Notes under the pieces: model-generated | What the model saw: only the letters and a program-made list of their open reading frames with translations | Databases searched by the model: none | What the model was told of the DNA's origin: nothing | Program-made: the position numbers and the translations under genes | Shown here: positions 17,896 to 62,583 of the stretch, in pieces | How positions within the stretch are numbered: the stretch's first letter is position 1 | How the letters are laid out: each line of letters begins with the position of its first letter | DNA from: an uncultured Acidobacteriota bacterium | GTDB lineage: Bacteria; Acidobacteriota; UBA6911 | DNA length: 64,000 nucleotides | Assembly: GCA_964642735.1 (NCBI GenBank) | Contig: CAZXSV010000002.1 | Coordinates: 16,354-80,353 of the forward strand | Reading direction: 5' to 3'

Positions 17896-17909
17896 TCGCC
17901 TGGTTCAGC

Positions 17910-20983: not shown

Positions 20984-20998
20984 GGAGCGCCCGTCGGT

Positions 20999-22091: not shown

Positions 22092-22205
22092 TTAACCCGC
22101 ATTATTCATGAAGCTTCTACTGTGGAAGGGCGGCTCCGGGCATGTCGACTGCGTCGCGCTCCGTCGGGCTCCTCGCTACGAACCTTCATGAATAATGCGG
22201 GTTGA
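22092..22205. mobile_element. 114-bp MITE-like repeat, copy B (near-perfect 20-bp TIRs)
   Basis: TTAACCCGCATTATTCATGAAG at 22092-22113 and CTTCATGAATAATGCGGGTTGA at 22185-22206. The right arm overlaps the last 10 codons (including the stop) of the cytidylyltransferase gene. Confidence 0.75.
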
Positions 22206-22916: not shown

Positions 22917-22941
22917 GCGTTTCTCTTTATCGGCGGTTGAA

Positions 22942-24662: not shown

Positions 24663-25788
24663 GGCGTCTTTTCAGCGGATGGCCCCCCACGGAAGCGGCA
24701 TCCGGCTCCTGATTGAAATGGATGGATTCTGAGGAAAGCGGCGGCGCCAGATCCTCCCACTGCAGAATGGTATCTTTGGCGATATTGCGCCTTGCGATCA
24801 TCCCGACAAGTTTTTCGCATTGGCGCGGCTCAAGGCCGCTTCCCGGACGCTTGAAAGCAAGCATCCAGGGAGCGATCGCTTCGTCTGCGCGGATGTCCAC
24901 TCCCGCCACGATGCTGCGTCGGCTGAATAGGCGGCTTTCTTCTTCCACATCCGACGGCCTCTTCCTTCCGTCTCCCAAACTGGCTTCGACGTCCCTCAGG
25001 TTTCGCACCAGCATCTTCAAATCAACCGGATCCATGCTGGCTTTGTGATCGGGGCCGGGCGCCTGCTTGTCCAATGTGAAGTGCTTTTCAATCAGGACGG
25101 CGCCCAACGCCACCGCGACCAGGGAAAGCAGAATCCCCTCGCTATGATCCGACAGCCCCACCGACAGTTCGAAATAAGACTGGAGGGTCTGCAGCGCGCG
25201 AAGATTCATGTACTGCGGCGAGGCGGGATAGGAAGACACGCAGTGCATCAGCAGGATCTCGCTGGCGCCCGCCGATTTCAGATTCCAGATGGCGTCGGCC
25301 ACCTCGCTCAGAAAGGACATGCCGGTCGAAAGAAGAACCGGTTTGCCTTTGGAGGCGACATGACGCAGCAAGGGCGCATGCGTGATGTCGGAAGAAGCTA
25401 TTTTGAAAACCGGGACTCCCAGGGAATCTAAAAAATCGACGCTTTCTTCATCAAAAGGAGTGGAAAAAAACAGGATTCCGCGTTCATCGGCGTAGTTTTT
25501 CAGTTTTTTCTGATCCTCAAAACTCAATTCGCACCGGCGGAGCATCTGATAGGCGGATTCGACGCCGTCCGTCTGTTGGGCATATCGATCGCGAGATGGA
25601 ATCAAAAGACGATCTGCGCGGAAGCTTTGAAACTTCACCGCATCCGCACCCGCCTGAGCCGCGGCGTCGATCAGCTTTTCCGCCTGACTTACGCTGCCGT
25701 TATGGTTGATACCGATCTCGGCAATCACAAAAACTCTGGATCCCGGGCCGATGATTTTTTGGCCAATCAATATGTTATTTTCTTTCAT
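24655..25788 (-). CDS. Nonulosonic acid synthase (NeuB/PseI/LegI family) with C-terminal SAF domain
   Basis: VIAEIGINHNGS, FSTPFDEESVDFL, GLSDHS; 377 aa. Confidence 0.85.
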   Translation of the reverse strand: MKENNILIGQKIIGPGSRVFVIAEIGINHNGSVSQAEKLIDAAAQAGADAVKFQSFRADRLLIPSRDRYAQQTDGVESAYQMLRRCELSFEDQKKLKNYADERGILFFSTPFDEESVDFLDSLGVPVFKIASSDITHAPLLRHVASKGKPVLLSTGMSFLSEVADAIWNLKSAGASEILLMHCVSSYPASPQYMNLRALQTLQSYFELSVGLSDHSEGILLSLVAVALGAVLIEKHFTLDKQAPGPDHKASMDPVDLKMLVRNLRDVEASLGDGRKRPSDVEEESRLFSRRSIVAGVDIRADEAIAPWMLAFKRPGSGLEPRQCEKLVGMIARRNIAKDTILQWEDLAPPLSSESIHFNQEPDAASVGGHPLKRRHA

Positions 25789-25896
25789 GCGCTCTCAATT
25801 CCAGAAGATGGACTTCCACTGCAACAACGCTTCCCTTTTGAATTCCCGTCTTTTCGCGCCGGAAGCGGGACGACCTAAGCGAAGACGCCAGCCGGA

Positions 25897-26997
25897 TCAT
25901 CGAACCGCCTTTATATCTGCAAGCAAACTCGTAAATATCAGGTCGCGAATTACCTGCGAAACTCTCTGGACGCCCAGTCCGTCGACTATTTGCCGCCCTC
26001 GCGAGGAGAGGCGATTTCGATCCATGACATTGAGTTCGAGGGAGGAAAGCCGCTCGGAAAGGCGAGCCGGATCCAGATCGTCTCCCGGCCCGAGAGAAAT
26101 GCAGGCGCCTGCATTGGAAAAAGCCGAGATGGCGCTCTGCTGGTAGGAGTCATAGGACAAAGCCATTAGAGGCGTGCCGGCGCACAGGGCTTCGTATGAG
26201 GCCAAGCCTCCGGCGGCGACGGCAAGATCCGCTTGAAAAAGAATTTGATGGATCGAGCCTGTTTCCCAACGGAAAGATACGGGCCCCCAATCTTTTATTT
26301 CCAGATCTTCCTGCCCCCAAGCTGCAAACCCGGGGGCGCCTACCGCTTCCAGCGGGCGATTCCAGAGCCGCAAACCCTCCAGGACTTTCAAGAAGTATTT
26401 CCTCGAATCGCCGCCTCCCAAATTGATGAAGACCGTGCCGATTTTTTCACGGATCTGCTTTTTCTTTTCATGGAGCAGACGATACTCAGGATCCAATATC
26501 ATATAGGGAACGCCGCCGTAAATAATCGCGTCCCTGCGGGATTTTTCAAAAAGAGGCAAAATGCTGCCGTCGATCAAAACGTCCGAAGGAAGTGGATTCA
26601 ATCCCAGGTCGTGAACGCTCACAACCGGAATTCTTTTGGCGTTTGCACAGGCGATCAGCCGATCCAGCCCGGCTGAAATCCTGGTGTCGATGAGAATCGC
26701 TGAAGGTTTCGGCAAAACCGACCAGCTTCGGTCCAAACCTTCGGTGAAAAAGCGGAAGCCAATGTTGGCCAGCCGCTCCTGGCTCCAGCGGTCCGTCGAA
26801 TCGACAAGAAATATCGGCAGGCAGCAATCAAGCAGCGTCCGGACAAGCGCCACCGATCTCTTCAAGTGACCGAAGCCGGCTTTGGGTCCGGCGCCGGTGC
26901 GCACCCAGATGGGGGCCTTTTCCTGCGGTCCGAATGTAGCTCGCGAATCTGTCAGACTTTTGGCGCCAGATAACATCATTTGACAAGTCCGTGACAA
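25897..26997 (-). CDS. PseG-like UDP-sugar hydrolase / GT28-type glycosyltransferase-fold protein
   Basis: N-terminal GFGHLKRSVALVRTL resembles the PseG GxGHxxR motif. C-terminal GGLASYEALCAGTPLMAL is GT-B/MurG-like. Confidence 0.6.
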   Translation of the reverse strand: MSRTCQMMLSGAKSLTDSRATFGPQEKAPIWVRTGAGPKAGFGHLKRSVALVRTLLDCCLPIFLVDSTDRWSQERLANIGFRFFTEGLDRSWSVLPKPSAILIDTRISAGLDRLIACANAKRIPVVSVHDLGLNPLPSDVLIDGSILPLFEKSRRDAIIYGGVPYMILDPEYRLLHEKKKQIREKIGTVFINLGGGDSRKYFLKVLEGLRLWNRPLEAVGAPGFAAWGQEDLEIKDWGPVSFRWETGSIHQILFQADLAVAAGGLASYEALCAGTPLMALSYDSYQQSAISAFSNAGACISLGPGDDLDPARLSERLSSLELNVMDRNRLSSRGRQIVDGLGVQRVSQVIRDLIFTSLLADIKAVR

Positions 26998-27003
26998 AAC
27001 CGT

Positions 27004-27639
27004 CTATTGGGCAATGCGCGCCTTCTCACAAATAATTTTGAACATTTCTCTCCAGACCGGAACCATTGGAAGGATTTCGTACTCGATCAGATCGGCAATA
27101 AGAGCGAAATCGCTTTTTTCTTGTGAATCGATCATCTGTTTTAAAACAGCGATAAACTTCCTGTGGTGCTCCCTGGCCGGGACGCCCTGAATGACAGCGT
27201 CTTCAAGCAGAATGTGGAAGCCGGTCTGCAACCTTTCCAGCAGCAGATTCAGCCAGTACAAACCCTCATAAAGCTGCCTTAGGTTTTCAAAAGATTCCGG
27301 CCCGGGTGAAAACTGGAAACTGCTTGCCAATGAGGGAGTTGCGGCTTCGATGCGATCGAGATAATCGAGGGCTTCCACGATCGAATCGCGAGCGATCTCG
27401 CCCATGGTGCCGGTATGGATCTCAATCTTCCCCCGCGCTTCCAGATGCTGCAGCATTTCGGATGAATTGCCGGACAGTTCGTCCGTCGTCAGCGGAATTC
27501 CATCGATGTGTATCTGACGGACAACAGCGTTCGGCGGCAGGCAGGCGTCTTCAATTTGCTTGAGGACATTGGCCAAAGAAGAGAGGTCCATTGGAGGCGG
27601 AACTTCTCTCTCGTCAACATAGAACTTGGTCATGAACAC
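27004..27639 (-). CDS. Hypothetical protein, first gene of the glycosylation operon
   Basis: 211-aa ORF, 6 nt from the next gene, divergent from flagellin 1. No family recognised. Confidence 0.5.
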   Translation of the reverse strand: MFMTKFYVDEREVPPPMDLSSLANVLKQIEDACLPPNAVVRQIHIDGIPLTTDELSGNSSEMLQHLEARGKIEIHTGTMGEIARDSIVEALDYLDRIEAATPSLASSFQFSPGPESFENLRQLYEGLYWLNLLLERLQTGFHILLEDAVIQGVPAREHHRKFIAVLKQMIDSQEKSDFALIADLIEYEILPMVPVWREMFKIICEKARIAQ

Positions 27640-27729
27640 CCCTTTTAAGGATCCAGGCGATTAAGGATCGCCAAACGACCTAAAGCAACTTAGGGGCCAG
27701 ACCCGTTAAAAAAAACTGCGTATTTTGAT

Positions 27730-27757
27730 TAAACTTCCCGGGACTTTCCGACGATAT
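27730..27757 (+). promoter_or_regulatory. Sigma28-type promoter of flagellin 1
   Basis: TAAA-N16-GACGATAT, ~145 nt upstream of the ATG. Confidence 0.65.
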
Positions 27758-27831
27758 GCTGCAGCGGAAGTTGTTAGATCGGAGGCATTGAGGAACCGAA
27801 ACAAATTCCGCAAACCTCCTGCAGGGCGGCA

Positions 27832-27899
27832 GGGCACGGATGCCCATCGGATCGCCTTCAGGAACACCGACCCATTCCCAAGAATTCACGGAGGAATTC
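27832..27899 (+). promoter_or_regulatory. Two putative CsrA-binding GGA hairpins in the flagellin 1 leader
   Basis: GGGCA-CGGA-TGCCC (27832-27845). GAATTC-ACGGAG-GAATTC (27882-27899) is the second, and its loop GGA overlaps the Shine-Dalgarno GGAGGA. Confidence 0.4.
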
Positions 27900-27902
27900 A
27901 TC

Positions 27903-28766
27903 ATGGGATCTTTCAGCATTCTCAACAACATTGCCGCTTTATACGCCCAGAGCCAGCTGGGTCTTTCAAATGCCAACCTAGCCCAGACCATAACCCGACT
28001 TTCTTCCGGAAAACGCGTCAATAGCGGCGCCGATGACGCCGCAGGATTGATGATCGCCGACAGTCTCAGGGCGAACGTCCGCGCCCTCGATCAATCGGTG
28101 CGAAACGCCAACGACTGCATCAGCGTCGGACAGATTGCGGACAGCGCTTTGCAAGAGATCACCAATATTCTTACACGCTCGGTCACGCTGGCGGAGGAAG
28201 CCGCAACCGGGACCATGGATTCGACCGCTCGCGCCGCTCTTCATGCAGAGTTCAGCGAGATTCAGGCGGAAATTGCGCGCATTGCAGTTCAGACTAATTT
28301 CAACGGAGTGCGATTATTCACTCCGGCAGGGCTCAACGGCTCTCTAAGCGCATTCGTCGGGGACATTTTCGGCCCCAGCTCGATTTCAGTGACAATCGAA
28401 ACCATTGATACGTCCGGAGACACGGTGACTTCGATTGGCGGTCAGAACCTTGCGTCCGTCAGCCTTGTCGATCAAAACGGGGCGGTCTCGGCCCTGACAA
28501 CCATACGGAATGCGCTGATCGCAGTCGCCAACAACCGAGCGGTGATCGGGGCCGGATCCAACCGGCTGCAATCCGCAGTGTCGGTCATGCAAAACCAATC
28601 CCTAAACACCCAGGGCGCTGAATCAACGATTCGCGATGCGAACATGGCGCAGGAAATCTCGAACCTCACCAAGTTCCAGATCTTATCGCAAACGGGAACG
28701 GCGGCGCTCGCGCAGGCCAACGCAAACGGCCAGACTATCCTGTCTTTGTTGCAGGGCATGAGGTAA
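27903..28766 (+). CDS. fliC: Flagellin (short, ~287 aa)
   Basis: MGSFSILNNIAALYAQSQL...RLSSGKRVNSGADDAAGL N-terminus, and C-terminus ...ANMAQEISNLTKFQILSQTGTAALAQANANGQTILSLLQG. SD GGAGGA upstream of ATG 27903. Confidence 0.95.
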   Translation: MGSFSILNNIAALYAQSQLGLSNANLAQTITRLSSGKRVNSGADDAAGLMIADSLRANVRALDQSVRNANDCISVGQIADSALQEITNILTRSVTLAEEAATGTMDSTARAALHAEFSEIQAEIARIAVQTNFNGVRLFTPAGLNGSLSAFVGDIFGPSSISVTIETIDTSGDTVTSIGGQNLASVSLVDQNGAVSALTTIRNALIAVANNRAVIGAGSNRLQSAVSVMQNQSLNTQGAESTIRDANMAQEISNLTKFQILSQTGTAALAQANANGQTILSLLQGMR

Positions 28767-28806
28767 TCCTCACCCGACCGGGATAGACTGCCGCAGCGGG
28801 CGCACA

Positions 28807-28852
28807 AAGCGGGCTCTTTGGAAAGGGGGAGCCCGCTTCCTCTCTATTTTTC
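28807..28852 (+). terminator. Rho-independent terminator of flagellin 1
   Basis: 10-bp stem AAGCGGGCTC / GAGCCCGCTT followed by a T-rich tract (CCTCTCTATTTTT). Confidence 0.8.
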
Positions 28853-28864
28853 TGCATTTTCCTC

Positions 28865-28891
28865 TAAGCTCCAATCCTCTTCGGACGATAA
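28865..28891 (+). promoter_or_regulatory. Sigma28-type promoter of flagellin 2
   Basis: TAAG-N15-GACGATAA, ~140 nt upstream of ATG 29031. Confidence 0.65.
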
Positions 28892-29030
28892 GCAGCAAGA
28901 ACCAAAAAATCGGAAGAAAAGCCTTTGGGCCTTCTACTGAGCTGAGCGACTATCCCCTCGCCGAGGCGGCCAGAGCCTTGATCTGGTTGTTTATGAATGG
29001 CGGTAGCTCGGATTCATGGAGGAATTCCAA

Positions 29031-29888
29031 ATGGGATCATTTAGCATCCTGAACAATATTTCTGGTTTGAATGCTCAAAACCAACTGAACGTCAACAATG
29101 TCAACCTTTCACGCACATTAATGCGTTTGTCTTCAGGCAAACGAATCAATTCCGGAGCGGATGATGCGGCGGGCTTGCAGATCGCGGACAGCTTGCGCGC
29201 GAACACTCAGGCTCTGAATCAAGCCGTAAGGAATGCAAACGACGGCATTTCGGTCGCTCAGATTGCCGACGGCGCACTGCAGGAAATCACCAATCTGTTG
29301 ACCCGCTCGGTCACGCTGGCCAACGAGGCGGCGACCGAAACAGTCGATTCCACAGGCCGCGCATCTCTGAACGCCGAATTCACCGCGATACAGGCTGAAA
29401 TCGCACGTATTGCGAACCAGACCAATTTCAACGGCTATGGCGTTTTTACGACCTCAGGCATAAATGGCAGCTTAAGCGTTTATGTCGGGGATCTCACGGG
29501 CGCCAGTTCCATCTCGGTCACGATCAGCACCATCACCACAAGCTCCGGAACCGTGACGAGCCTCGGAGGCCAGAACCTGGCCGCTGTGAACCTTACGAGC
29601 CAGGATAACGCCGCAACTTCTTTGACGACCATCAAAAACGCCTTAAACAGCGTTTCCAACATGCGGGCCGGCATCGGCGCCGGCATCAACAGGCTCCAGT
29701 CCGCAGTGGCAGTGCTGCAAACCCAGTCTCAGAATACCCAGGCTGCGGAATCCAGCATTCGGGACGCCAACATCGCTGAAGAAGTGGCAAACCTGACCAA
29801 GTACCAGATCCTGGCGCAGTCGGGAATCGCCGCTCTCGCTCAGGCTAATTCCAACAGCCAGACAGTCCTCGGTCTGCTCCGTGGATAG
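29031..29888 (+). CDS. fliC: Flagellin paralog (short, ~285 aa)
   Basis: MGSFSILNNISGLNAQNQL...SGKRINSGADDAAGL, and a conserved C-terminus ...ANIAEEVANLTKYQILAQSGIAALAQANSNSQTVLGLLRG. Confidence 0.95.
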   Translation: MGSFSILNNISGLNAQNQLNVNNVNLSRTLMRLSSGKRINSGADDAAGLQIADSLRANTQALNQAVRNANDGISVAQIADGALQEITNLLTRSVTLANEAATETVDSTGRASLNAEFTAIQAEIARIANQTNFNGYGVFTTSGINGSLSVYVGDLTGASSISVTISTITTSSGTVTSLGGQNLAAVNLTSQDNAATSLTTIKNALNSVSNMRAGIGAGINRLQSAVAVLQTQSQNTQAAESSIRDANIAEEVANLTKYQILAQSGIAALAQANSNSQTVLGLLRG

Positions 29889-29908
29889 CATTCAAACCCA
29901 ATGATGTG

Positions 29909-29942
29909 AAGGCGCGCTCAAAGGATGAGCGCGCCTTTTTCT
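29909..29942 (+). terminator. Rho-independent terminator of flagellin 2
   Basis: 12-bp stem AAGGCGCGCTCA / TGAGCGCGCCTT running into TTTTT. Confidence 0.85.
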
Positions 29943-30052
29943 CAAACCTGCCGCAAGAGTCCCGGTGAATTTCCATGCCGGGACTCCCGGCATATTCCCG
30001 ATCAGCGGCAGCGACTGCAAGATTCTTCCGCTCCGTCCCTTCCCCTTTTTCT

Positions 30053-30080
30053 TAAACCGGATTTGCGCCTGAGACGATAA
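30053..30080 (+). promoter_or_regulatory. Sigma28-type promoter upstream of maf
   Basis: TAAA-N16-GACGATAA. Confidence 0.6.
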
Positions 30081-30097
30081 ATTCATCGGATGCCGGT

Positions 30098-31996
30098 TTG
30101 CATTTCTGCCAACTGCAAAGGCAATATCAGGGAAAATATTCTTTGAGCCATCTCGACGCGAATTTGGACCTGCTCTCCTCCCGCCAACCGGGTTTGGCGG
30201 ACGCGTTGCGCTGCATCCAAACCAGCAACGTAGCGCTTTTCGAATCCGCCTCCGGAAATCCCACCGCGCGCTACGAGCGGAAAGGATCTTCATTCGCTCT
30301 GCACAGCCGCTATGACCCTGTTCGAGAAGCGCGGCAAATCGTCGCCAAGCAGGATGCCTCCGGCGCCGACTACCTGATACTTCTCGGGTTCGGCCTCGGC
30401 TATCTTTTGGATGCGCTCCTCGAAGGCGACAAAGCAAGATCGAATCGCTATTTCATCGTGGAATCGGACCTTGAAATTCTGAGGGCCGCCTTTGAAGCGC
30501 GCGACCTCTCGAGCCTGATTTCACTGCCTCATGTTCACTTCGCCTGGCCTGCTTGCGGACCGGATCTCGCCGAACAGTGGCGGCATTTCTTCGATCCGGT
30601 TGCAGCGCAGAAGAGCGCGTTCATCGCACATTTTCCCTGTTTCACGATAAATCCTTCATTCTTTAAAGCTGCAGCCGAAACCATCCAGAGTCAAACCTTC
30701 CAGATTTTCACCGATATCAATACGCTGGTCGCAAATTCGGAGATGTTTCTTGATAATTTTGTGAAGAATGTGCGCAAAGCAGCGCTCTCTCCCGGGATCG
30801 CCGGCTTCGCAGGCCACTTCGCCAAAGTCCCGGCAATTATCGTTTCCGCAGGGCCGTCTCTGGATAAAAACATTCACGAACTGCGGGGTTTTGAAGAAAA
30901 CGCTCTCATTCTTTCCACCGACACAGCCCTGAAACCGCTGCTGGCTGCCGGGATTGATCCGCATTTCATATTGACCGGCGATCCATCCCACGACAACTAT
31001 CTTCACCTTCAATCGGCGCCCACAAGGGATGCATATATTGTTGCAGAAGCTTCATCCTTTCCAGATGTTTTTGACGAATTTTCCGGCAAGATTTTAACAT
31101 GCACCTTTGAAAATTCGTCTTTGCGCTCCTTATCCGACCTTTTGGGCAACAAAGGCTCGCTTCGGGCATGGGGATCCGTAGCCACCGTAGCCTTGGATTT
31201 TGCCCTGCTTCTTCAGTGCGACCCAATCGTATTTGTCGGCCAGGATCTTGCTCATACCGATGGCAGAATATATTGCACAGGAATTATATTTGATGATGAA
31301 TGGTTCAATGATATATTTAATCCTTTAGATTGGCATTTGAAGCTGGAACAGCTGCGTTGTCGCCGGCGCTCCGTATCGGTCGAAGATGTATTCGGCCGCC
31401 CCGTGGAATCCACAGACAAGCTTACAGCTTATTGGAATTGGATCCAGAGGGTTATCCGGGACAATCCGAAAACCCGATATATCAACGCAACCGAAGGAGG
31501 GATTTTGAAAGATCATGTCGAAATCCTAAGCCTCCGCGATGCGCTCCATCGGGAGTGCGGGACAAACAGGCGTCTGCGCAAGCGCGTCGCCGAAATTTAT
31601 GCAGACGCTCAGAATAAAAACCTTGTCTATTCAGGCATTGACTTGTCTTTGCTGCTTCAAGAGTCCGTGGCCATCCGGGAAGCATTAAAGAAAGGCCAGC
31701 GGCTTTGTGAAACCGACAATTCATGCCCGATCCCGGAACGGATAAGCCGGCTGGAAGCTGCCAAGGAATCCATCTATCTTGCGCCTCACCTGGCCCCCCT
31801 GTTGGATTGTTTCAACCAGATGGGCAACGTCGCCTTTTTGCGCAAACGCAACACGGCCATGCAGCGCGCCGCAGATTCGAAATATTTCCCCGATCTTCTC
31901 GCAGTCTATTCGGAATATTTCGCCACCGTTAACGACGCGTTATGTAAAATCGACAAGGCTCTCGGCCGAATTGCTGCAAACCTCAACAATTGCTAG
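30098..31996 (+). CDS. maf: Motility-associated factor (Maf, DUF115/MptE-like) putative flagellin nonulosonic-acid glycosyltransferase
   Basis: PAIIVSAGPSLDKNIHELR...ILSTDTALKPLLAAGIDPHFILTGDPS is the Maf/DUF115 core. The TTG at 30098 lies only ~10 nt from the predicted TSS. The in-frame TTG at 30143 (AGGGA upstream) is an alternative start. Confidence 0.8.
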   Translation: MHFCQLQRQYQGKYSLSHLDANLDLLSSRQPGLADALRCIQTSNVALFESASGNPTARYERKGSSFALHSRYDPVREARQIVAKQDASGADYLILLGFGLGYLLDALLEGDKARSNRYFIVESDLEILRAAFEARDLSSLISLPHVHFAWPACGPDLAEQWRHFFDPVAAQKSAFIAHFPCFTINPSFFKAAAETIQSQTFQIFTDINTLVANSEMFLDNFVKNVRKAALSPGIAGFAGHFAKVPAIIVSAGPSLDKNIHELRGFEENALILSTDTALKPLLAAGIDPHFILTGDPSHDNYLHLQSAPTRDAYIVAEASSFPDVFDEFSGKILTCTFENSSLRSLSDLLGNKGSLRAWGSVATVALDFALLLQCDPIVFVGQDLAHTDGRIYCTGIIFDDEWFNDIFNPLDWHLKLEQLRCRRRSVSVEDVFGRPVESTDKLTAYWNWIQRVIRDNPKTRYINATEGGILKDHVEILSLRDALHRECGTNRRLRKRVAEIYADAQNKNLVYSGIDLSLLLQESVAIREALKKGQRLCETDNSCPIPERISRLEAAKESIYLAPHLAPLLDCFNQMGNVAFLRKRNTAMQRAADSKYFPDLLAVYSEYFATVNDALCKIDKALGRIAANLNNC

Positions 31997-40103: not shown

Positions 40104-40412
40104 CTAAAAAACCTCGTCCAGCAGATTGCCTCCGATTATCTTGTCGGCGATCTTCTCCGCTTTCACATTGTAAGTGCCGGCTTCGATATCCCGTCGAACC
40201 TGATCTATTCTCATTTCCCGGGTATCGGGAGTCGAACGAACCAGTTCATCGAGATGCGATATTTCCCGGCTTCGAACCGACAATTCGAGCCTGTCCGTGT
40301 CGGGATTCCGACCGCCGCCGCTTTTTTGAGTCCGCTCCGCCTGCTGCGGACTCTCAAGCCTCTGAACGTTGTTTTTCGAGCCAATCAAGGGATTTGAACC
40401 ATTAATCTCCAT
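40104..40412 (-). CDS. flgM: Anti-sigma-28 factor FlgM
   Basis: 102 aa. C-terminal RIDQVRRDIEAGTYNVKAEKIADKII is the FlgM sigma28-binding region. Confidence 0.8.
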   Translation of the reverse strand: MEINGSNPLIGSKNNVQRLESPQQAERTQKSGGGRNPDTDRLELSVRSREISHLDELVRSTPDTREMRIDQVRRDIEAGTYNVKAEKIADKIIGGNLLDEVF

Positions 40413-46028: not shown

Positions 46029-46044
46029 TGCAAGTTTCATGCCA
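46029..46044 (-). promoter_or_regulatory. Sigma54-type -24/-12 promoter upstream of flgF
   Basis: Minus strand TGGCATGAAACTTGCA (TGGCA-N6-TTGC geometry), -12 element 48 nt upstream of the flgF ATG. Confidence 0.6.
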
Positions 46045-46143: not shown

Positions 46144-47037
46144 TCAATGTCCCACCGCATAATCGAGAGAGCACGCTCTTTCGGAAGCCGGGGCCATGTA
46201 TTCCACGGGCGTCGAGCTGTAACGGAAAAAGTGATGGTGGGATTCCGTGGCGAAATCCAGGCGCATCCAGAAAAAATCCGGAAGAAGCTCGGCACGTATG
46301 TCCTCGGCGCGGCTGTCTACGGCGCTGGCAATCATTTCGGCGCCGATCTCGATCAACTCGTCCAGCGAGCCGAATGTGGGCACATTCGACAAATCCAGCT
46401 CTTGGGGTTCATACCATTCGCCAAGCAGCTGTTGAATGACCGATTGATCGCCGACATAGGCCTCAATCCCCTTGCGAACCATACGCTGTATCGCCTGCTG
46501 CGAAATAAAATCGACAGGCGCGCATACGGCGACTCGAATGGAGTCCTGGTCGGCGCCGAATCCCACAGGAAGGAATCCGGAGCGCTTGGCGACCTTGCCG
46601 GGAATCATCCTAACGGCTTCCGCGTTGGCGTTCGAGTTCTTGAGGTTGATCAGAGGAAGGCCATATTGACGCGCTAAAGCCGCGGTGATTTGATGCTCTT
46701 CCACAAATCCGAGGCGAAGAAGCCATTCGCCCAGCCTGCCTTCCTGCGTCTGCTTTTGAAGCTTGATGGCTTCCTCAAGCTGCCCGCGGGTTAAATAGGT
46801 CGTTTGCATAAGGATGGTGCCCAGTTTTGGCCTCGGAATCCTGCGGTTTCTTTCGTGTTGCAGCCGGCGCCATTTTTCATTCAAATCATTTTCGAAATAG
46901 GCCATCAGGCAGGAGTCGCTGCAAAAAACATGCCCTTCGCACTGGGGCGGCCGCCGCCGGTTCAAAAAGACGCTGAACTCCGACCGAATGCGCGTACAAT
47001 CTTTGCGGTAGCATTGATATCTAGGCATACGAACCAA
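46144..47037 (-). CDS. Zinc-ribbon-like + MshEN/T2SSE_N-domain protein (putative c-di-GMP receptor, no ATPase domain)
   Basis: Residues 71-124 are KLGTILMQTTYLTRGQLEEAIKLQ-KQTQEG-RLGEWLLRLGFVEEHQITAALARQ, followed by YGLPLINL (T2SSE_N signature). N-terminal Cys cluster with FCSDSC. Confidence 0.7.
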   Translation of the reverse strand: MVRMPRYQCYRKDCTRIRSEFSVFLNRRRPPQCEGHVFCSDSCLMAYFENDLNEKWRRLQHERNRRIPRPKLGTILMQTTYLTRGQLEEAIKLQKQTQEGRLGEWLLRLGFVEEHQITAALARQYGLPLINLKNSNANAEAVRMIPGKVAKRSGFLPVGFGADQDSIRVAVCAPVDFISQQAIQRMVRKGIEAYVGDQSVIQQLLGEWYEPQELDLSNVPTFGSLDELIEIGAEMIASAVDSRAEDIRAELLPDFFWMRLDFATESHHHFFRYSSTPVEYMAPASERACSLDYAVGH

Positions 47038-47440
47038 CCTTTTCCTTGACTTTGGCGTTCTTTGGATTTTCCCAATTCATGTATTTGCCCAAATTCAGAA
47101 TGAGTTCGGCTTCTCCCGCCGGGGCTTTCAGACGCTTCACGATTTCGTCCAACCCCGCCCCCTGCCGCGCCAGCGCAAGGACCTGGTGCCTTCTCTCCAG
47201 CGGAAGACTGGGATCATGCGAAGGAACGCTCAATTCCATCAGCCTTTCTTCCAGGTTCTCGAGATTCGCGGAATATTTGCAGTGCGCTTTCATCTGCATT
47301 TCGACCATTTGAGCCATCGATCCTGAAATGTTCCGCAATTCGCATTCCAGAGTCCCGATTCTCAGAAAAAGCTTTTTCCTCATGGTGAAGTGAAGCACGC
47401 CTGCATGCAGAGCCAGGATGAAAAGGAATAAGTAAAGCAT
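47021..47440 (-). CDS. Membrane-anchored hypothetical protein, DUF2802-like C-terminus
   Basis: N-terminal TM (MLYLFLFILALHAGVL). The C-terminal VLALARQGAGLDEIVKRLKAPAGEAELILNL resembles, from memory, the DUF2802 helix-turn-helix-like signature found in flagellar loci. Confidence 0.5.
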   Translation of the reverse strand: MLYLFLFILALHAGVLHFTMRKKLFLRIGTLECELRNISGSMAQMVEMQMKAHCKYSANLENLEERLMELSVPSHDPSLPLERRHQVLALARQGAGLDEIVKRLKAPAGEAELILNLGKYMNWENPKNAKVKEKVGSYA

Positions 47441-47470: not shown

Positions 47471-48331
47471 TCACCCCCGGAGCCGCGCCGTATCGTGGAT
47501 TGAGGTTTGGACATCGGCAATGAGAGCGCTCATGTCCGAACCGGCGAGGCTCAAATATTCCGTGGCCGGAAGTTTTTCCAGACCGACGTCCCCATTCTTC
47601 TCAAAGCCGATTCCCATCGATATCATGACAAGATTCGCCAAGTTGACGATGCACGCCAGCCGCCGGTAGTTTGGAGCGGACAGCGGATCGTGATGCCAGC
47701 CCACCGCTTCGGCGAGTTGTGGCGGGAAATTCCACTTCCGTGCGAGCATCTCGCCCACATGCGCATGGGAAAAGCCCAAAGTCAAAAGCTCCAGCTGATG
47801 AAAACCGGCGTTCCCCTTGTAAACCTCGCTGACGATTTCGCTGTAAACGGATTGAAGATTCATCATCATCACCGGCTTGCCGATATCGTGCATCAGGCCG
47901 CAAACCATGGCCTCCTCGGGCTGTTCATATCCAATCCGTCTGGCAATGGCCCGGGCGGCCAGGGCCGCCCCCCAGGAATGTTCCGACATCAGCTTTGTTC
48001 CAAGATCTTTCGCCTGGCTGAAAACACGCTCCGCCGAAGCCGCCATCAGGATGGAGCATACGGTCTGAATTCCCAGCACAGAGACCGCATGAGAAACCGT
48101 CGAGACCTCGCATCTCAGGCAATACATGGCGGAATTGACGATTCTCAATATTTTGGCGGACAAGGCCTGGTCTTTCGCTATCAACAGCTGCAAGTCCCTC
48201 ACCGACACATCCGGATCAAGCGCCATCTCCATAGCCCTGACGACAATTCCGGGCAATGCGGGCAAATCCTGAACTTTCGCAATAAGTTCGTGAACTTTCG
48301 ACTCCGCGTGTTCCGTCTGCAGCGTTTGCAT
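47471..48331 (-). CDS. HDOD-domain protein
   Basis: LPALPGIVVRAMEMALDPDVSVRDLQLLIAKDQALSAKILRIVNSAMY...HSWGAALAAR...GLMHDIGK is the HDOD layout. Confidence 0.8.
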   Translation of the reverse strand: MQTLQTEHAESKVHELIAKVQDLPALPGIVVRAMEMALDPDVSVRDLQLLIAKDQALSAKILRIVNSAMYCLRCEVSTVSHAVSVLGIQTVCSILMAASAERVFSQAKDLGTKLMSEHSWGAALAARAIARRIGYEQPEEAMVCGLMHDIGKPVMMMNLQSVYSEIVSEVYKGNAGFHQLELLTLGFSHAHVGEMLARKWNFPPQLAEAVGWHHDPLSAPNYRRLACIVNLANLVMISMGIGFEKNGDVGLEKLPATEYLSLAGSDMSALIADVQTSIHDTARLRG

Positions 48332-48373: not shown

Positions 48374-48709
48374 TTATCCGAGCGAACGAATCCTTTCCGC
48401 TTTGCTTTCAACCTCAAGAATCCGCACTCCGTAATTGCCTTCCACCATGACGACTTCCCCTTTGGCGATGGGTTTGTGATTGACGATAATGGTCACCGGG
48501 TCGTTGACGGATTTGTCCAATTCGATGACAGATCCCGCCCCGAGCTTCAGGACGTCTTTTAGCTGCATCTCGGAGTGCCCGAATGAAACGCTCACCGGGA
48601 GCTCGACATCCAGGAGCATGTCGAGATTCCAATTTTCCGCAGCAGGGCTTGCCACGGCAGCCTCTTTTGCCTTCTCCGCAATCTTGGCGTTTTCATAGCT
48701 GTCTGCCAC
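48374..48709 (-). CDS. fliN: Flagellar switch protein FliN
   Basis: LLDVELPVSVSFGHSEMQLKDVLKLGAGSVIELDKSVNDPVTIIVN.KPIAKGEVV.VEGNYGVRI. Confidence 0.9.
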   Translation of the reverse strand: MADSYENAKIAEKAKEAAVASPAAENWNLDMLLDVELPVSVSFGHSEMQLKDVLKLGAGSVIELDKSVNDPVTIIVNHKPIAKGEVVMVEGNYGVRILEVESKAERIRSLG

Positions 48710-48754: not shown

Positions 48755-49735
48755 TCAGCCGAGATGCTTCGCGGATATTTCGAAAGCCTTTTTCCCGCGT
48801 TGGACGACAATTCTTCCCACAAATTTCGGCGCTCCCGCAACGCACATGTAGATCGGGTCGCCGACTCTCTCGTTCAACTGAATGACATCCCCCACCGCGA
48901 CTTTTAAAAGATCGTCGACCGTGAGATTGGAGCTGCGCATTTCACCGGCAAGAGAAACGGGAACCAGTTTCATCAGCTCAAAGATCCTCTCGGCTTCGTT
49001 GCTCGTGGATTTCTGCCTTCTCACGTTCCACTGCTGATCGAATTTGCCTCGAAGCAGCTTCAACAGGCGCGAGGGGATGCAAAGGTTCACCAAACCGGAG
49101 TTCTCCCCGATTTTCAGCTCGAAATGCACGGCGATAACCGCTTCGGCGGGGGAGACGATCTGGAACATTTGAGCCTTGGTTCCCTTCCCTTCGAGAAAGA
49201 AATCAAGTTCCATAATCGGAAGCCATGCGGCTCTCAGGTCCCGCATCGCCAGACGGATGACGCCTTCGATGATGTTCATCTCTATTTCGGTCAGGTTGCG
49301 GTTGGCGGTCAGCGAAAGACCCGCTCCCCCCAGGATCATGTCGATCATGGGAAAAACCAGAGACGGATTCAACTCCATCGCCATATTCCCGTCCAACGGA
49401 CGCATCCCGAGACTCGTGAACAACGTGGGGTCTGGAAGCGCTTTGATGAAGGCGGCATAGGATATCTGTTCAAGAGAGACGAGGTTCACCTCGACGAAAG
49501 CGCGCAGATATGCGGAAAGTGAAGATGCAAAATTGCGCCCGAAATATTCGTGCAGGAGGTGAATCGACCTCATCTGGTCCTGCGATATCCGATCCGCGCG
49601 ATGGAAGTCGTAATTGACGATTTTGCGGGCGGAAGCCGCGGCGATTTTATCCTGCGACGAAACTGCGCCTGCATCTTCGGAGGACATCGCCGAAAACAGA
49701 GCGTTGATTTCTTCCTGCGATAGTACCTTTTCCAT
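48755..49735 (-). CDS. fliM: Flagellar switch protein FliM
   Basis: N-terminal CheY-P-binding-type LSQEEINALF, a middle FliM domain, and a C-terminal SpoA-like region. Confidence 0.9.
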   Translation of the reverse strand: MEKVLSQEEINALFSAMSSEDAGAVSSQDKIAAASARKIVNYDFHRADRISQDQMRSIHLLHEYFGRNFASSLSAYLRAFVEVNLVSLEQISYAAFIKALPDPTLFTSLGMRPLDGNMAMELNPSLVFPMIDMILGGAGLSLTANRNLTEIEMNIIEGVIRLAMRDLRAAWLPIMELDFFLEGKGTKAQMFQIVSPAEAVIAVHFELKIGENSGLVNLCIPSRLLKLLRGKFDQQWNVRRQKSTSNEAERIFELMKLVPVSLAGEMRSSNLTVDDLLKVAVGDVIQLNERVGDPIYMCVAGAPKFVGRIVVQRGKKAFEISAKHLG

Positions 49736-49750
49736 AGTATCGACCGGCTG

Positions 49751-50515
49751 CTATTCTTGCCCGTTCACTTTTTTCAGTTTAGTCCGCAGTCTCAGCATCG
49801 CCTTGGTATGGAGTTGAGACACGCGGGACTCGTTGACGCCGAGCACCTTCCCGATTTCTTTCATCGTGAGCTCGTCGAAGTAATACAGCGAAACGACCAG
49901 ACGTTCCTTTTTGGGAAGCGTGTCGATGGCGACGCTCAGGATGCTTTGGATCTCCGTCTTATGAAAAACGAAAAAAGGATCCATGTGGGGCGCGTCCGGG
50001 ATGTATTTGACCAGGGGCTCGGGGTTTTTGTCCTCATCCTGCGAGGAAAGCTCCTGGAAGCTTCCGAGGTTCAATCCCTTGATCTGATCCACAAGCTCAT
50101 AGAATTCATCAAGCGTGATTTCCATGGCCTCGCAGACTTCCTTGTCGCTGGCCGGGCGGCCCAATCGCTGCTCGAGTTCCCTGTAAACTCGCTCCAGATC
50201 TTTGCTTTTCTTGCGGAGCGAGCGGGGCGCCCAGTCGAGGTTGCGCAAACTGTCCAGGATGGCGCCCTTGATGCGCAGTTCGGCGTAGGTTTTGAATTTG
50301 ACACCCCGGTTTGGATCAAATTTCTCGATTGCGTCCAGCAATCCAAGAATGCCCGCGCTTACCAGGTCGTTCAATTCGACATGAGACGGGAGTTTTGTGG
50401 AAATCCGCTGGGCGATGTATTTGATTTGGGGCAAATGCTCCAAAATCAATCCATCCCGCTCGGCGTTGTTGGGGACTGGCGTTTCGTATATTTTCTGGCT
50501 CATCGAGTCCTGCAT
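49751..50515 (-). CDS. fliA: Flagellar sigma factor FliA (sigma28)
   Basis: Regions 2-4 of a group-3 sigma factor: DLVSAGILGLLDAIEKFDP, YAELRIKGAILDSLR, LTMKEIGKVLGVNESRVSQLHTKAMLRLR. Confidence 0.9.
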   Translation of the reverse strand: MQDSMSQKIYETPVPNNAERDGLILEHLPQIKYIAQRISTKLPSHVELNDLVSAGILGLLDAIEKFDPNRGVKFKTYAELRIKGAILDSLRNLDWAPRSLRKKSKDLERVYRELEQRLGRPASDKEVCEAMEITLDEFYELVDQIKGLNLGSFQELSSQDEDKNPEPLVKYIPDAPHMDPFFVFHKTEIQSILSVAIDTLPKKERLVVSLYYFDELTMKEIGKVLGVNESRVSQLHTKAMLRLRTKLKKVNGQE

Positions 50516-58583: not shown

Positions 58584-58901
58584 CTATGTCAGCGTATTGA
58601 AATCTGTTAGCCGAATCCCCGTGCTGCCTTCCAATTCAAGGACCTCGCCAAAAGCGATGAGGCGCTCATTGACCAAAATGTCGACGTTTTCTCCGGCGGA
58701 CTTTGGCAGTTCAACAATTGAATTCACTTGCAGCTGCAATATTTCGCGCACCTTCATATCGCACCTGGCAAGCTGAATGGCGATCTTCATCGGGACATTC
58801 AGGAAATGGCTCATCAGATCCATTTCCTTCTCCAATATTGCTTCTTTTGCGTTTGCGGTTTCGGACATGGCAGGCAATCTCTCGCTAGAGCTGAACGACA
58901 A
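58584..58901 (-). CDS. Second FliN/SpoA-family switch-complex paralog
   Basis: FLNVPMKIAIQLARCDMKVREILQLQVNSIVELPKSAGENVDILVNERLIAFGEVLELEGSTGIRL is a SpoA (FliN C-terminal) domain. Confidence 0.75.
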   Translation of the reverse strand: MSFSSSERLPAMSETANAKEAILEKEMDLMSHFLNVPMKIAIQLARCDMKVREILQLQVNSIVELPKSAGENVDILVNERLIAFGEVLELEGSTGIRLTDFNTLT

Positions 58902-59454: not shown

Positions 59455-59470
59455 TGCAAGTCACATGCCA
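59455..59470 (-). promoter_or_regulatory. Sigma54-type -24/-12 promoter upstream of fliL
   Basis: Minus strand TGGCATGTGACTTGCA, -12 element 47 nt upstream of ATG 59409. Confidence 0.6.
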
Positions 59471-59633: not shown

Positions 59634-60800
59634 TTAGCAGCCGAATTCGCTTTCTTCGGCGAACCAAGCCTGGTTCTTGCCGGCCTTCTTTGCTCTATAG
59701 AGCGCATTGTCGGCACGCAGGATGATTTCCCGGGCGTCGAGGCATACAAAAGTCGTGCAGCAGGCCACCCCGATGCTGAGGGTCCTGTGCATAGGAACCG
59801 AGCCAAGGGTGAATTCATGGGAAGAAAAGGTTGAAAGCAGGTTTTCAGCGACTCTGGCCGCGCCGGCATTGTTGGTGCGCGGCAGAATGACCGTGAATTC
59901 CTCGCCGCCGTATCTGGCCACAAAATCGGTCACTCGAAGGGCGCGCTTCAGAAGCATTCCGGTCTGCCGCAAGAATTCGTCGCCAGCCTGATGTCCATAG
60001 ACGTCGTTAATTTGCTTGAAATCGTCGATGTCCATCATCAAGCAGCTGAAAATTTCGCCGTAGCGTCGCGCCCGTGCGATTTCCATATCGAGCCGTTCGA
60101 ACAGCCGGCGTTTGTTGAACAATCCCGTGCACTCGTCGGTATGGGCCAGTTCCTGCAGTTTTTCGTTCAATTGAGTGAGGCGCAGATCGTGATCTTTCAA
60201 GCGGGCATTGGCCGTCGCCAACTCCTGCTTGGTAAGAACATTGTCCAGCGACGAGGAAAGATGCGCCGCTACCAGCGAACCAAGATGGTATTCAATCTCA
60301 TCAAAGCGATGAGGCCGGTTCGAAATCATCTCAATGCAGCCGACGACCTTTCCCAGGGCGGCAAAAGGAAACGCCATTATGGAACGCCACGGAGCGTCGC
60401 CCGCAGCTTCGGTGCATTTTTTCTGTTTTTTTGATGAATGCGTGTCGGGCATCCAAAGGGGAGTGCCGGACCGGATGACGCTGCCCGCGATTCCGCTGTC
60501 CAGGGGGACGATCTCCTCCTCTTTCGGAACGTCCGGCCCCGAAAGCTTCATCTTCCGATAGCGAGCCTCATCGACAACGCAAAGCCTCGTCTGGTCGTCC
60601 GGGAAGCATTCCTGAAAATAGGATCGCAAAATGTTCTGGAGATGCTCAACGTCCCGGGCGCAGTTCATGGAATTGGAAAGCGCGTTAATGGCCAAAAGGC
60701 GCCGGTAGAGATCCACCGCGCGTTCCTGGGATGGAACGGTCTGCCGAAGCAGGTCTAAAAGGCCTTTCCCACGAGTAATAGCCGTCGCCGCAATTGCCAT
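59634..60800 (-). CDS. GAF-domain diguanylate cyclase (GGDEF, GGEEF active site plus RxxD I-site)
   Basis: N-terminal GAF-like region. C-terminal DECTGLFNKRRL, DIDDFKQINDVYGHQAGD, and RVTD-x5-GGEEF. Confidence 0.9.
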   Translation of the reverse strand: MAIAATAITRGKGLLDLLRQTVPSQERAVDLYRRLLAINALSNSMNCARDVEHLQNILRSYFQECFPDDQTRLCVVDEARYRKMKLSGPDVPKEEEIVPLDSGIAGSVIRSGTPLWMPDTHSSKKQKKCTEAAGDAPWRSIMAFPFAALGKVVGCIEMISNRPHRFDEIEYHLGSLVAAHLSSSLDNVLTKQELATANARLKDHDLRLTQLNEKLQELAHTDECTGLFNKRRLFERLDMEIARARRYGEIFSCLMMDIDDFKQINDVYGHQAGDEFLRQTGMLLKRALRVTDFVARYGGEEFTVILPRTNNAGAARVAENLLSTFSSHEFTLGSVPMHRTLSIGVACCTTFVCLDAREIILRADNALYRAKKAGKNQAWFAEESEFGC

Positions 60801-62567: not shown

Positions 62568-62583
62568 TGCACAATTCGTGCCA
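62568..62583 (-). promoter_or_regulatory. Sigma54-type -24/-12 promoter upstream of flgD-flgE
   Basis: Minus strand TGGCACGAATTGTGCA, -12 element 72 nt upstream of the flgD ATG. Confidence 0.55.

Follow-up and report, generated by a model that had tools for sequence, protein, structure and literature searches.

The window analyzed in this study is a stretch of 64,000 nucleotides (nt) from an uncultured Acidobacteriota bacterium of the UBA6911 lineage (GenBank assembly GCA_964642735.1, contig CAZXSV010000002.1, positions 16,354–80,353 of the forward strand), and all coordinates are given as positions in it. It contains an open reading frame (ORF) at 46144–47037 on the minus strand, which an earlier reading of the letters alone (the sequence-only reading) had described as a stand-alone MshEN-type putative receptor for cyclic di-GMP (c-di-GMP) at the end of a fliA-fliMN operon. 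This ORF, referred to here as gene X and its product as X, is a conserved gene whose product carries a genuine MshEN domain in which the signature of the ligand site is intact, and it is linked to flagellar genes across distant lineages. Homologues, domain searches and a structural model place gene X at 46144–47028 on the minus strand and divide its product of 294 amino acid residues (aa) into a predicted N-terminal zinc finger, an MshEN domain and a C-terminal domain that probably derives from the beginning of N2, a domain of PilB/GspE ATPases, with no ATPase domain.

The start of gene X is almost certainly the ATG at 47028 and not the TTG. Nearly all of the approximately 120 homologues listed were 290–296 aa long, every one of those read started with M-[PSHLAG]-[KR], and a Shine-Dalgarno-like AAGGAAAAGG was found just upstream of this ATG. 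Residues are numbered here from ATG 47028, so that the numbers of the sequence-only reading run three higher. With this start, gene X overlaps the stop of the preceding gene, which encodes a FipA-like protein, by 8 nt (ATGCCTAG) instead of the 17 nt reported earlier. Further upstream and in the same apparent operon are fliN (48374–48709), fliM (48755–49735) and fliA (49751–50515), which were identified with Pfam and are all on the minus strand. The junctions from fliA to gene X were gaps of 15–45 nt or overlaps, with one strand used throughout.

A match to a sigma-54-type promoter (TGGCAT-N5-TTGCA) was found directly downstream of gene X at 46029–46044 on the minus strand, 47 nt upstream of flgF, where the next transcription unit would start. 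Exact matches to TGGCAY-N5-TTGCW occurred only twice in the 64-kb window, at 46029–46044 and at 59455–59470, both on the minus strand, and both were intergenic and directly upstream of flagellar operons, those of flgF and fliL, respectively. These two matches suggest that this bacterium has RpoN-dependent classes of flagellar genes. The same pattern with one mismatch was not more frequent than expected by chance; only the two exact intergenic matches were used. One such one-mismatch match lies at 62568–62583, upstream of the flgE region. A scan for intrinsic terminators after gene X gave none that was convincing, and the counts were not above those of shuffled sequences. Given the exact promoter match between gene X and flgF, gene X is most likely the final gene of its transcription unit. 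The short or overlapping upstream junctions agree with this placement, which the sequence-only reading had also proposed.

The complete MshEN domain of X spans residues ~68–212. Its N-terminal subdomain, MshEN_N (residues 68–121; 46666–46827, minus strand), which contains the predicted c-di-GMP site, matched the NCBIfam model NF053729 ('c-di-GMP_motif') with 50.6 bits (cut-off 38) and an E value of 1.2e-13. The tandem 24-residue motifs at these positions were the same, letter for letter, as those given in the sequence-only reading. The α/β subdomain, MshEN_C (residues 122–212; 46393–46665, minus strand), was matched at residues 122–209 by the Pfam model MshEN (PF05157) with 48.5 bits (cut-off 23.1) and E values of 8.5e-13 to 8.7e-13, and the alignment took in 87 of the 90 model positions. 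A phmmer search of the Protein Data Bank (PDB) with X found PilF, PilB and MshE, of which MshE (5HTL) had an E value of 3e-17. Thus, by NF053729, PF05157 and phmmer alike, the motif match in X is far beyond chance, and the MshEN assignment of the sequence-only reading, for which a hidden Markov model (HMM) search had been proposed as a check, holds at a significant score and above the curated cut-off of the motif model.

The AlphaFold2 (AF2) model of X, which was built on a 49-sequence alignment, had a mean predicted local distance difference test score (pLDDT) of 83.6 and a predicted template modeling score (pTM) of 0.77. In Foldseek comparisons, the model superposed on c-di-GMP-bound MshE (5htl_B) with a template modeling score (TM) of 0.83 and a root-mean-square deviation (rmsd) of 2.6 Å over 142 columns at 31% identity, and on c-di-GMP-bound PilF GSPII-B (8pdk_A) with a TM of ~0.80. 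These superpositions showed the MshEN layout of a four-helix-bundle N subdomain followed by an α/β C subdomain, so that structure prediction, a check proposed in the sequence-only reading, gave a positive outcome. The ATPase core (Pfam T2SSE, PF00437; Walker A/B, Asp and His boxes) was not matched in X or in 37 family members. Moreover, alignments of X to TIGR02538 and TIGR02533 included only the N-terminal parts of these models (positions 1–143 of 564 and 2–75 of 486, respectively) and were far below the cut-offs, and the protein stops at residue 294. The lack of an ATPase domain is therefore as originally described. The approximately 170 residues that had been left without a family, by contrast, consist of ~90 residues of MshEN_C, a domain of ~60 residues related to the start of N2 and a last ~20 residues that are predicted to be disordered. 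As a side observation, weak matches to Pfam DUF4388 (best E value 0.004) were found over the MshEN_N motif region in 19 of 37 family members (alignment A2), and DUF4388 may hold a related helical motif of the c-di-GMP type.

The ligand site of X consists of half-site 1 (KLGTILMQTTYLTRGQLEEAIKLQ), the spacer KQTQEG and half-site 2 (RLGEWLLRLGFVEEHQITAALARQ). The key residues of MshE are R9/L10/G11/L25/L29/Q32 and R38/L39/G40/L54/L58/Q61 (Wang et al., 2016; PMC5013675). In the alignment with 5HTL, those of half-site 1 correspond to K68, L69, G70, L84, I88 and Q91 of X, and those of half-site 2 to R98, L99, G100, I114, L118 and Q121, so that the hydrophobic triads of X are L69/L84/I88 and L99/I114/L118. 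All residues that mutagenesis has found to be required are present in X, i.e., K68, G70, Q91, R98, G100 and Q121 as well as both triads. Half-site 2 satisfies the strict motif, and half-site 1 departs from it at position 10 alone. The key ligand positions were invariant or conservatively substituted across 49 family members; Q121 was invariant, and Q91 was retained in 31 of 37 members of the broad family. In the 'resurrection' study of PilF GSPII-A, the Arg at position 1 of motif II and both Gln residues were indispensable, Gly at position 3 was required for high affinity and Ile in place of Leu was tolerated (PMC12002112). The Lys at position 1 of motif I of X is shared with the high-affinity binder PilF GSPII-B (K167). 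According to the same study, even a perfect motif is no guarantee of binding, since access to the site may be blocked by an N-capped, extended helix 1, as in PilF GSPII-A, and by contacts between the subdomains (PMC12002112). A block of the N-cap-helix kind is unlikely in X, judged from the model, because prolines 65 and 67 precede helix 1, which starts at residue 69 in the AF2 model. Given this residue-by-residue correspondence, it is quite likely that X binds c-di-GMP.

The C-terminal domain (residues 213–273; 46210–46392, minus strand), which was characterized with AF2, Foldseek, hhalign and HMMER, was modeled as one helix and a three-stranded sheet with pLDDT values above 90, and it carries a conserved W254-x-R256. 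Pfam gave no match to this domain, and Foldseek with the isolated C-terminal model gave no match with an E value below 0.07. Foldseek also returned weak matches over N2 of PilB (5zfr_C; probability 0.97, rmsd 2.1 Å over 43 columns) and of EpsE (1p9r; probability 0.91). When the family profile was aligned to MshEN-bearing ATPases with HMMER, the alignments extended through query positions 256–266. In addition, hhalign aligned the C-terminal alignment to an N2-start profile of 20 MshEN-bearing ATPases with 86.6% probability and an E value of 4.5e-6. This alignment paired LIEIGAEMIASAVDSRAEDIRAEL..FWMRLD with the classic P-I-I-x-L-V-N-x-I-I-x-x-A-x-x-x-x-ASDIHIEP..VRYRIDG block, and the near-invariant W254-x-R256 aligned with the VR-x-R strand of the N2 block. 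Given the profile-profile comparison and the collinearity with the ATPases, the C-terminal domain is probably a relic of the beginning of N2 in PilB/GspE ATPases. Thus, X looks like a PilB/MshE-type ATPase that was truncated soon after the start of N2 and to which a zinc finger was added at the N-terminus. The sequence-only reading had seen the tandem motifs but missed the N2-like nature of the C-terminal part.

The N-terminal module (residues 1–60; 46849–47028, minus strand) combines a zinc-finger-like C4 cluster with a long helix (residues 38–60 in the AF2 model). Its pattern in X is C6-x4-C11-x24-C36-x3-C40, with an FCSxxC knuckle. The four cysteines were invariant in alignment A5, which holds 42 diverse sequences from all subfamilies, whereas the fifth cysteine (C30 here, C33 in the earlier numbering) and the His before C36 varied among homologues. 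The Cys cluster that had been noticed before thus stands with four conserved cysteines and loses the fifth. The zinc-finger region is rich in Arg and Lys (RKDCTRIRSEFSVFLNRRRPP). No significant relative of the module was found by Pfam searches with the isolated N-terminus, by Pfam searches with 37 members or by a profile search of the PDB. TRASH_ZMYM4 matched with E values of 0.09–0.16 over 11 residues, zf-FCS matched with an E value of 0.41 in one of the 37 members, and the best match in the PDB profile search was a PHD knuckle with an E value of 0.028. Membership in the TRASH/zinc-ribbon families, which had been proposed on the basis of the Cys pattern, was therefore rejected, as none of the TRASH/zinc-ribbon models gave a significant match and the (F/Y)CSxxC knuckle and the four cysteines amount to a resemblance. 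The four invariant cysteines are the sole support for a zinc module, and from them the N-terminal module is predicted to be a C4 zinc finger with an (F/Y)CSxxC knuckle. The zinc-binding anti-sigma motif is H-x3-C-x2-C. This motif was not visible in X and the His before C36 is not conserved, so identity as a zinc-binding anti-sigma factor was rejected as well.

The close family of X has at least 230 members, nearly all of ~294 aa, and all named ones are from metagenome-assembled genomes of Acidobacteria, including UBA6911. In the source annotations, the members appeared as 'hypothetical protein' and once as 'MshEN domain'. An exhaustive HMMER search of 1.84 billion representatives yielded thousands of MshEN proteins. 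Among the best 150 of these, ~40 were 270–330 aa long and matched X from end to end at 20–31% identity with the same three modules. Linkage to flagellar genes was assessed in 18 close loci, which are from species-representative genomes, and in 10 distant contexts, which were obtained from look-ups of 11 of these end-to-end relatives. The gene order of the close loci, where the contig permits it to be read, was flhF-flhG-fliA-fliM-fliN-(HDOD)-DUF2802-X-flgF-flgG-flgA-flgH-flgI. All 18 close loci were within flagellar clusters with gene X followed by flgF-flgG, and DUF2802-X was found wherever the locus extends upstream. In the distant subfamilies, which are 20–33% identical to X, nine of the 10 contexts were flagellar; the tenth (P0189, L022) is 1.7 kb long and too short to judge. 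Thus, the synteny survey, which the sequence-only reading had put forward as a check, links the homologues to flagellar genes in all close loci and in every distant context that can be read. One close homologue is on a 2.3-kb contig that was binned as 'Candidatus Omnitrophota' (L015; JAKQSI010000054.1). Given its 68% identity and its acidobacterial gene order, this contig is probably a mis-binned acidobacterial one.

Similar to the close loci, gene X followed fliM/fliN in all readable distant contexts except one (L029). For instance, the gene order was flhA-flhF-flhG-fliM-fliN-DUF6115-X-flgF-flgG-flgA for P0143 (L021), flhB-flhA-flhF-flhG-fliA-fliM-fliN-151 aa-X-cheX-REC-cheX for P0168 (L023/24), fliO...flhA-flhF-flhG-fliA-fliM-fliN-167 aa-X-flgF... 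for P0149 (L025) and flhB-flhA-flhF-flhG-fliA-fliM-fliY-DUF6115-X for P0251 (L030). In P0159 (L026), the order was ...fliA-FliMN_C protein-DUF2802-X-hybrid kinase, and in P0133 it was flhA-flhF-flhG-fliA-fliM-fliN-HDOD-145 aa-45 aa-X-fliK. The exception, P0236 (L029), had the order 165 aa-X-...-flgF-flgG-flgA-flgH-flgI. Finally, the homologues from Terriglobia, P0255 and P0312 (L020 and L027/28), were in the order flhA-fliA-fliM-fliN(285 aa)-X, at a locus that lacks flhF, flhG and a DUF2802 gene. FlhA of the distant loci was 52–63% identical to FlhA of the window, which places these lineages far from that of the window. Given that X was only 23–33% identical in the same comparison, X appears to evolve fast. 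A profile search with the mixed alignment A2 returned matches that were nearly all from the same acidobacterial clade, and a search with alignment A3, from which the window protein was left out, returned the Terriglobia clade only. Most members from Terriglobia had no precomputed Pfam match, MshEN included.

Two side observations concern the genes around X in these loci. The window contains two FliN-type genes (FliMN_C) on the minus strand, one of 111 aa after fliM (48374–48709) and one of 105 aa after fliL (58584–58901), and a duplication of FliN was also found in the Terriglobia locus L027 (92 aa and 285 aa). Moreover, L027, and likewise L028, contains two genes for a '23S rRNA intervening sequence protein' (PF05635, four-helix-bundle, bAvd-like) within the flagellar operons, at 1841–2257 and 9446–9802 of L027. 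One is in the fliP/fliQ interval, and the other is in the fliN/X interval, where it fills the slot of the FipA-like gene elsewhere.

The gene directly upstream of gene X (47021–47440, minus strand) encodes a FipA-like small membrane protein with an N-terminal transmembrane helix, a coiled coil and a DUF2802-like C-terminus. It matched Pfam DUF2802 with an E value of 4.4e-6 and 27.2 bits, which is below the cut-off of 33.5, and DUF6115 with an E value of 5e-4. The DUF2802-like neighbour of the sequence-only reading is thus present with a score below the cut-off, and its kinship to FipA had gone unrecognized. In the window, and wherever a close locus includes the FipA-like gene, the stop of this gene overlaps the start of gene X. 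A gene for a protein with a transmembrane helix, a coiled coil and a DUF2802-like part was also directly upstream of gene X in seven of the nine readable distant contexts, L029 included. The small upstream proteins of the window and the distant loci have in common a hydrophobic helix at the N-terminus, a stretch of coiled coil and a conserved C-terminal block, K-R-x-x-V-L-x-L-A-x-x-G-x-x-x-x-E-I-x-x-x-L-x-x-P-x-G-E-x-E-L-I-L-N-L. The γ-proteobacteria Vibrio, Pseudomonas and Shewanella depend for polar flagellation on FipA (DUF2802), which binds FlhF (PMC11620751). Similar to FipA, the window protein has a transmembrane/coiled-coil/DUF2802-like architecture, adjoins flhF-flhG-fliA and possesses a G...E-x-x-L spacing equal to that of G110/E126/L129 of VpFipA. 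Different from FipA, its Pfam score is below the gathering cut-off, it is from another phylum and its gene adjoins that of an MshEN protein; no MshEN partner is mentioned in the work on γ-proteobacteria (PMC11620751).

Between fliN and the FipA-like gene, the window contains a gene for an HDOD-domain protein (47471–48331, minus strand; Pfam HDOD E value 2.6e-58), which is an optional member of the module. Fifteen distinct close loci cover the interval from fliN to DUF2802, and the HDOD gene was found in 11 of them; it also recurs after fliN near gene X in P0133, a lineage whose X is 29% identical. This distribution suggests a recurrent module of HDOD, FipA-like protein and X.

Predicted enzymes of c-di-GMP turnover are also encoded in the window. 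A predicted GAF-GGDEF diguanylate cyclase gene at 59634–60800 on the minus strand (Pfam GGDEF E value 1.6e-44, GAF_2) has an intact GGEEF active site and an RxxD I-site. It belongs to the flagellar cluster, where it follows flgE and immediately precedes the sigma-54-type promoter of fliL. Its product is a candidate local signal source for X. A REC-HD-GYP response regulator at 17733–19028 on the plus strand (Pfam Response_reg and HD_5; HD and GYP motifs) is a predicted c-di-GMP phosphodiesterase; a GNAT acetyltransferase gene is next to it, and motB-motA (20186–21826) is ~1.2 kb away. No PilZ protein was found among the window ORFs that were scanned with Pfam. Other motility-related genes of the window include flgM (40104–40412), which is canonical, the Pfam FlgM model having matched the orthologous gene. 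A Ras/Arf-like small GTPase gene is beside a Roadblock/LC7 gene (8284–8877 and 8913–9395, both minus strand), an MglA/MglB-like polarity pair some 10 kb from the motility genes. Finally, a flagellin glycosylation island at 22176–31996, beside two flagellin genes (27840–28766 and 29016–29888), contains genes for a NeuB-type sialic/pseudaminic acid synthase, two nucleotidyltransferases, an ATP-grasp enzyme and a Maf/MptE-like protein, as well as two ORFs without a Pfam match (25897–26997 and 27004–27639).

Taken with its context, gene X somewhat more probably than otherwise encodes a cytoplasmic c-di-GMP receptor that is dedicated to the flagellum, and it probably represents an unstudied route by which c-di-GMP is linked to flagella. 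In a bolder reading, which we rate at slightly less than even odds, X would define a widespread and hitherto unrecognized family of flagellar accessory proteins, in which a relic of a pilus/secretion ATPase without its ATPase core was captured by the fliM-fliN operon and became a c-di-GMP sensor of the flagellar switch or of flagellar assembly in at least two classes of Acidobacteriota and in several further uncultured lineages. X would have arisen as an offshoot of the N-terminus of an MshE/PilB-type ATPase, of which it would keep N1 (MshEN) and the first helix and sheet of N2, with the ATPase core lost and an N-terminal C4 zinc finger gained. One c-di-GMP would bind the four-helix MshEN_N bundle via the half-sites K68-L69-G70...Q91 and R98-L99-G100...Q121. 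In the parent ATPases, the ligand alters the relation of N1 to N2 and the motor; by analogy, binding may reposition the N2 relic (W254/R256) and the zinc finger of X. We infer from the features described above that X binds c-di-GMP and a partner, and that the zinc finger and the N2 relic could be output surfaces, which would bind or release a flagellar protein. Given that X is on the same transcript as FliA, FliM, FliN and the FipA-like protein, this partner is most likely on the side of the basal body that faces the cytoplasm; the FliM/FliN C-ring is the first choice. In this way, c-di-GMP would control how flagella rotate or assemble, in functional analogy to the PilZ proteins YcgR, MotI and FlgZ, with a signal from enzymes such as the cluster-encoded GAF-GGDEF and REC-HD-GYP proteins. 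X could act as a brake, a clutch, an assembly block or an activator.

Several observations weigh against this reading. PilF GSPII-A with a fully restored consensus still did not bind c-di-GMP (PMC12002112). As the sequence-only reading had pointed out, and as the 5HTL alignment and the family conservation bear out, half-site 1 of X has a Thr in place of the central Gly at position 10, where most of the 49 members have Ala; the relaxed published motif allows G, A or S at this position, so that Thr is outside it (PMC5013675). The spacer is likewise six residues and not five in the 5HTL alignment, as had been read before; that of PilB proteins is seven. MshE D108, a minor contact, is replaced by Ala in X. 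Moreover, the motifs are degenerate (TLAGWL) in one subfamily (P0159/P0198), and the function of the family may thus not strictly depend on the ligand. The scores for the N2 relic are moderate, i.e., 86.6% in hhalign and Foldseek E values of 0.38–0.62 despite the probabilities of 0.91–0.97. Finally, fliM and fliN are not adjacent to gene X in L029, and gene order alone does not separate the C-ring from FlhG, FlhF or FipA as the target.

The placement system of FlhF, FlhG and FipA is a strong rival as the target, given the near-universal coupling of gene X to a FipA-like gene outside Terriglobia. Under this explanation, which we consider rather unlikely, X would be a c-di-GMP receptor of the system for flagellar placement and number that binds the FipA-like protein or FlhF/FlhG and gates FlhF recruitment and the start of assembly. 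The window and every close locus with the FipA-like gene show an overlap between the stop of that gene and the start of gene X, a FipA-like gene is just upstream of gene X in seven of the nine readable distant contexts, including the one without adjacent fliM/fliN, and the string of genes also contains flhF and flhG; moreover, FipA binds FlhF and is required for polar flagellation in γ-proteobacteria (PMC11620751). However, the DUF2802 score of the putative partner is under the Pfam cut-off, and the FipA work is confined to γ-proteobacteria, in which an X-like partner was not reported (PMC11620751). The homologues from Terriglobia, moreover, keep the three modules and the position after fliM-fliN at a locus that lacks flhF, flhG and the DUF2802-like gene, and this tips the balance towards a C-ring-related target.

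The remaining explanations give c-di-GMP or the flagellum another part. X may serve the structure or assembly of the flagellum independently of any ligand and use the MshEN fold solely as a scaffold for protein-protein interactions (cf. GspE N1-GspL), with the motifs kept by constraints of the fold. We regard this as improbable. Some near-consensus MshEN/GSPII domains do not bind c-di-GMP (PMC12002112; XpsE, PMC5013675), the P0159 subfamily has degenerate motifs in the same gene context, and the window protein departs from the motif at position 10 of half-site 1; on the other side, the ligand-contacting residues that are dispensable for the fold (K/R at position 1 and Gln at position 24 of both halves) are invariant or conservatively substituted in 49 sequences, the dedicated motif model scored above its curated cut-off, and the flagellar cluster contains a gene for a predicted diguanylate cyclase. 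N1 domains are the part of PilB/GspE ATPases that docks on the platform, as in GspE-GspL, and X might accordingly be a decoy of the PilB/MshE N-terminus that docks on a pilus or secretion platform (PilM/PilC/GspL-like) and blocks or tunes type IV pili during swimming. Its collinearity with N1 and the start of N2 of PilB-type ATPases and the presence of platform-docking N1 structures (2bh1 and 4pht) among its fold matches are consistent with such a role. However, no pilus or secretion genes were seen beside gene X in any examined locus, both the extra zinc finger and a neighbourhood that is strictly flagellar favour a flagellar partner, and the fast evolution of X (23–33% identity compared with 52–63% for FlhA) also argues against a decoy. 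We hold this explanation to be very improbable. Slightly less probable still is a regulator of flagellar gene expression, either a c-di-GMP-responsive partner or antagonist of FliA (sigma-28) or a nucleic-acid binder that uses the basic zinc finger. Gene X is in the fliA operon in most lineages and its zinc-finger region (RKDCTRIRSEFSVFLNRRRPP) is Arg/Lys-rich, but Pfam and NCBIfam detected no helix-turn-helix or known DNA-binding domain in X and 37 members, a canonical FlgM is encoded nearby (40104–40412), and fliA is absent from the neighbourhoods of L021 and L029.

With the flagellar sensor as the preferred reading, X can be compared with known systems. X shares the fold (TM 0.79–0.83) of the MshEN domains of MshE, PilB and PilF (5HTL, 8PDK and 5TSG) at 25–31% identity, and similar to these proteins it has two tandem 24-residue half-sites in which the critical residues are kept. 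As in them, a segment like the start of N2 comes next. Different from them, X possesses no ATPase core, an extra C4 zinc finger and a 6-residue spacer, and its gene is in flagellar operons instead of operons for pili or secretion. Without an ATPase core, X offers the ligand no motor ATPase to stimulate, and X, judged by its sequence, falls outside the PilB/MshE ATPase family. NfrB is reportedly an MshEN domain fused to a glycosyltransferase. ATPase-less MshEN fusions with REC, HD-GYP, CheA, CheX, cyclases, kinases and glycosyltransferases have been described (Wang et al., 2016; PMC5013675). Given that MshEN is established as a c-di-GMP receptor domain and that such fusions are known, X is not a new kind of receptor domain. 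Similar to these architectures, X would use MshEN as a portable c-di-GMP sensor module outside the secretion ATPases; different from them, as they have recognizable enzymatic or signalling outputs (Wang et al., 2016), the putative outputs of X are a small zinc finger and an N2 relic, to which no activity is assigned. The combination of zinc finger and MshEN and the flagellar linkage are absent from the architectures in the main text of that study (PMC5013675). Full-text literature searches (MshEN/T2SSE_N with flagella/FliM, DUF6115 and UBA6911) returned no description of the X family or of its architecture and no report that ties an MshEN protein to flagellar operons, in agreement with the uncharacterized status that the sequence-only reading had given to an ATPase-less flagellar MshEN protein.

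The control of flagella by c-di-GMP is known mainly through PilZ proteins (YcgR, MotI and FlgZ), transcription factors (FleQ and FlrA) and FliI. YcgR, MotI and FlgZ are PilZ effectors that brake or declutch the flagellar motor. From its gene context, X would have the same role as YcgR, MotI (DgrA) and FlgZ, that of a cytoplasmic c-di-GMP effector on the motor or switch, but its ligand domain is unrelated to PilZ. No PilZ/YcgR match (RxxxR, DxSxxG) was found in X or its relatives at E values up to 1, and X is therefore not a PilZ brake. If the bolder reading is true, X would let c-di-GMP control flagella without a PilZ domain, by a route in which the MshEN domain of pilus and secretion ATPases was recruited to the flagellum, so that one motility machine borrows a part of another. 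A FipA-like coupling could in addition tie c-di-GMP to flagellar placement. Because the Pfam MshEN model misses most members from Terriglobia, censuses of c-di-GMP receptors would have overlooked the X family, which is recognizable by three features jointly: the C-x4-C...(F/Y)CSxxC knuckles, the double MshEN motif and the C-terminal W-x-R strand. Many phyla, including the Acidobacteriota, which are abundant in soil, have flagella and many GGDEF/EAL/HD-GYP genes and, to our knowledge, no known flagellar effector. If X functions as proposed, a conserved MshEN receptor encoded beside fliM/fliN would fill this gap and offer a testable protein.

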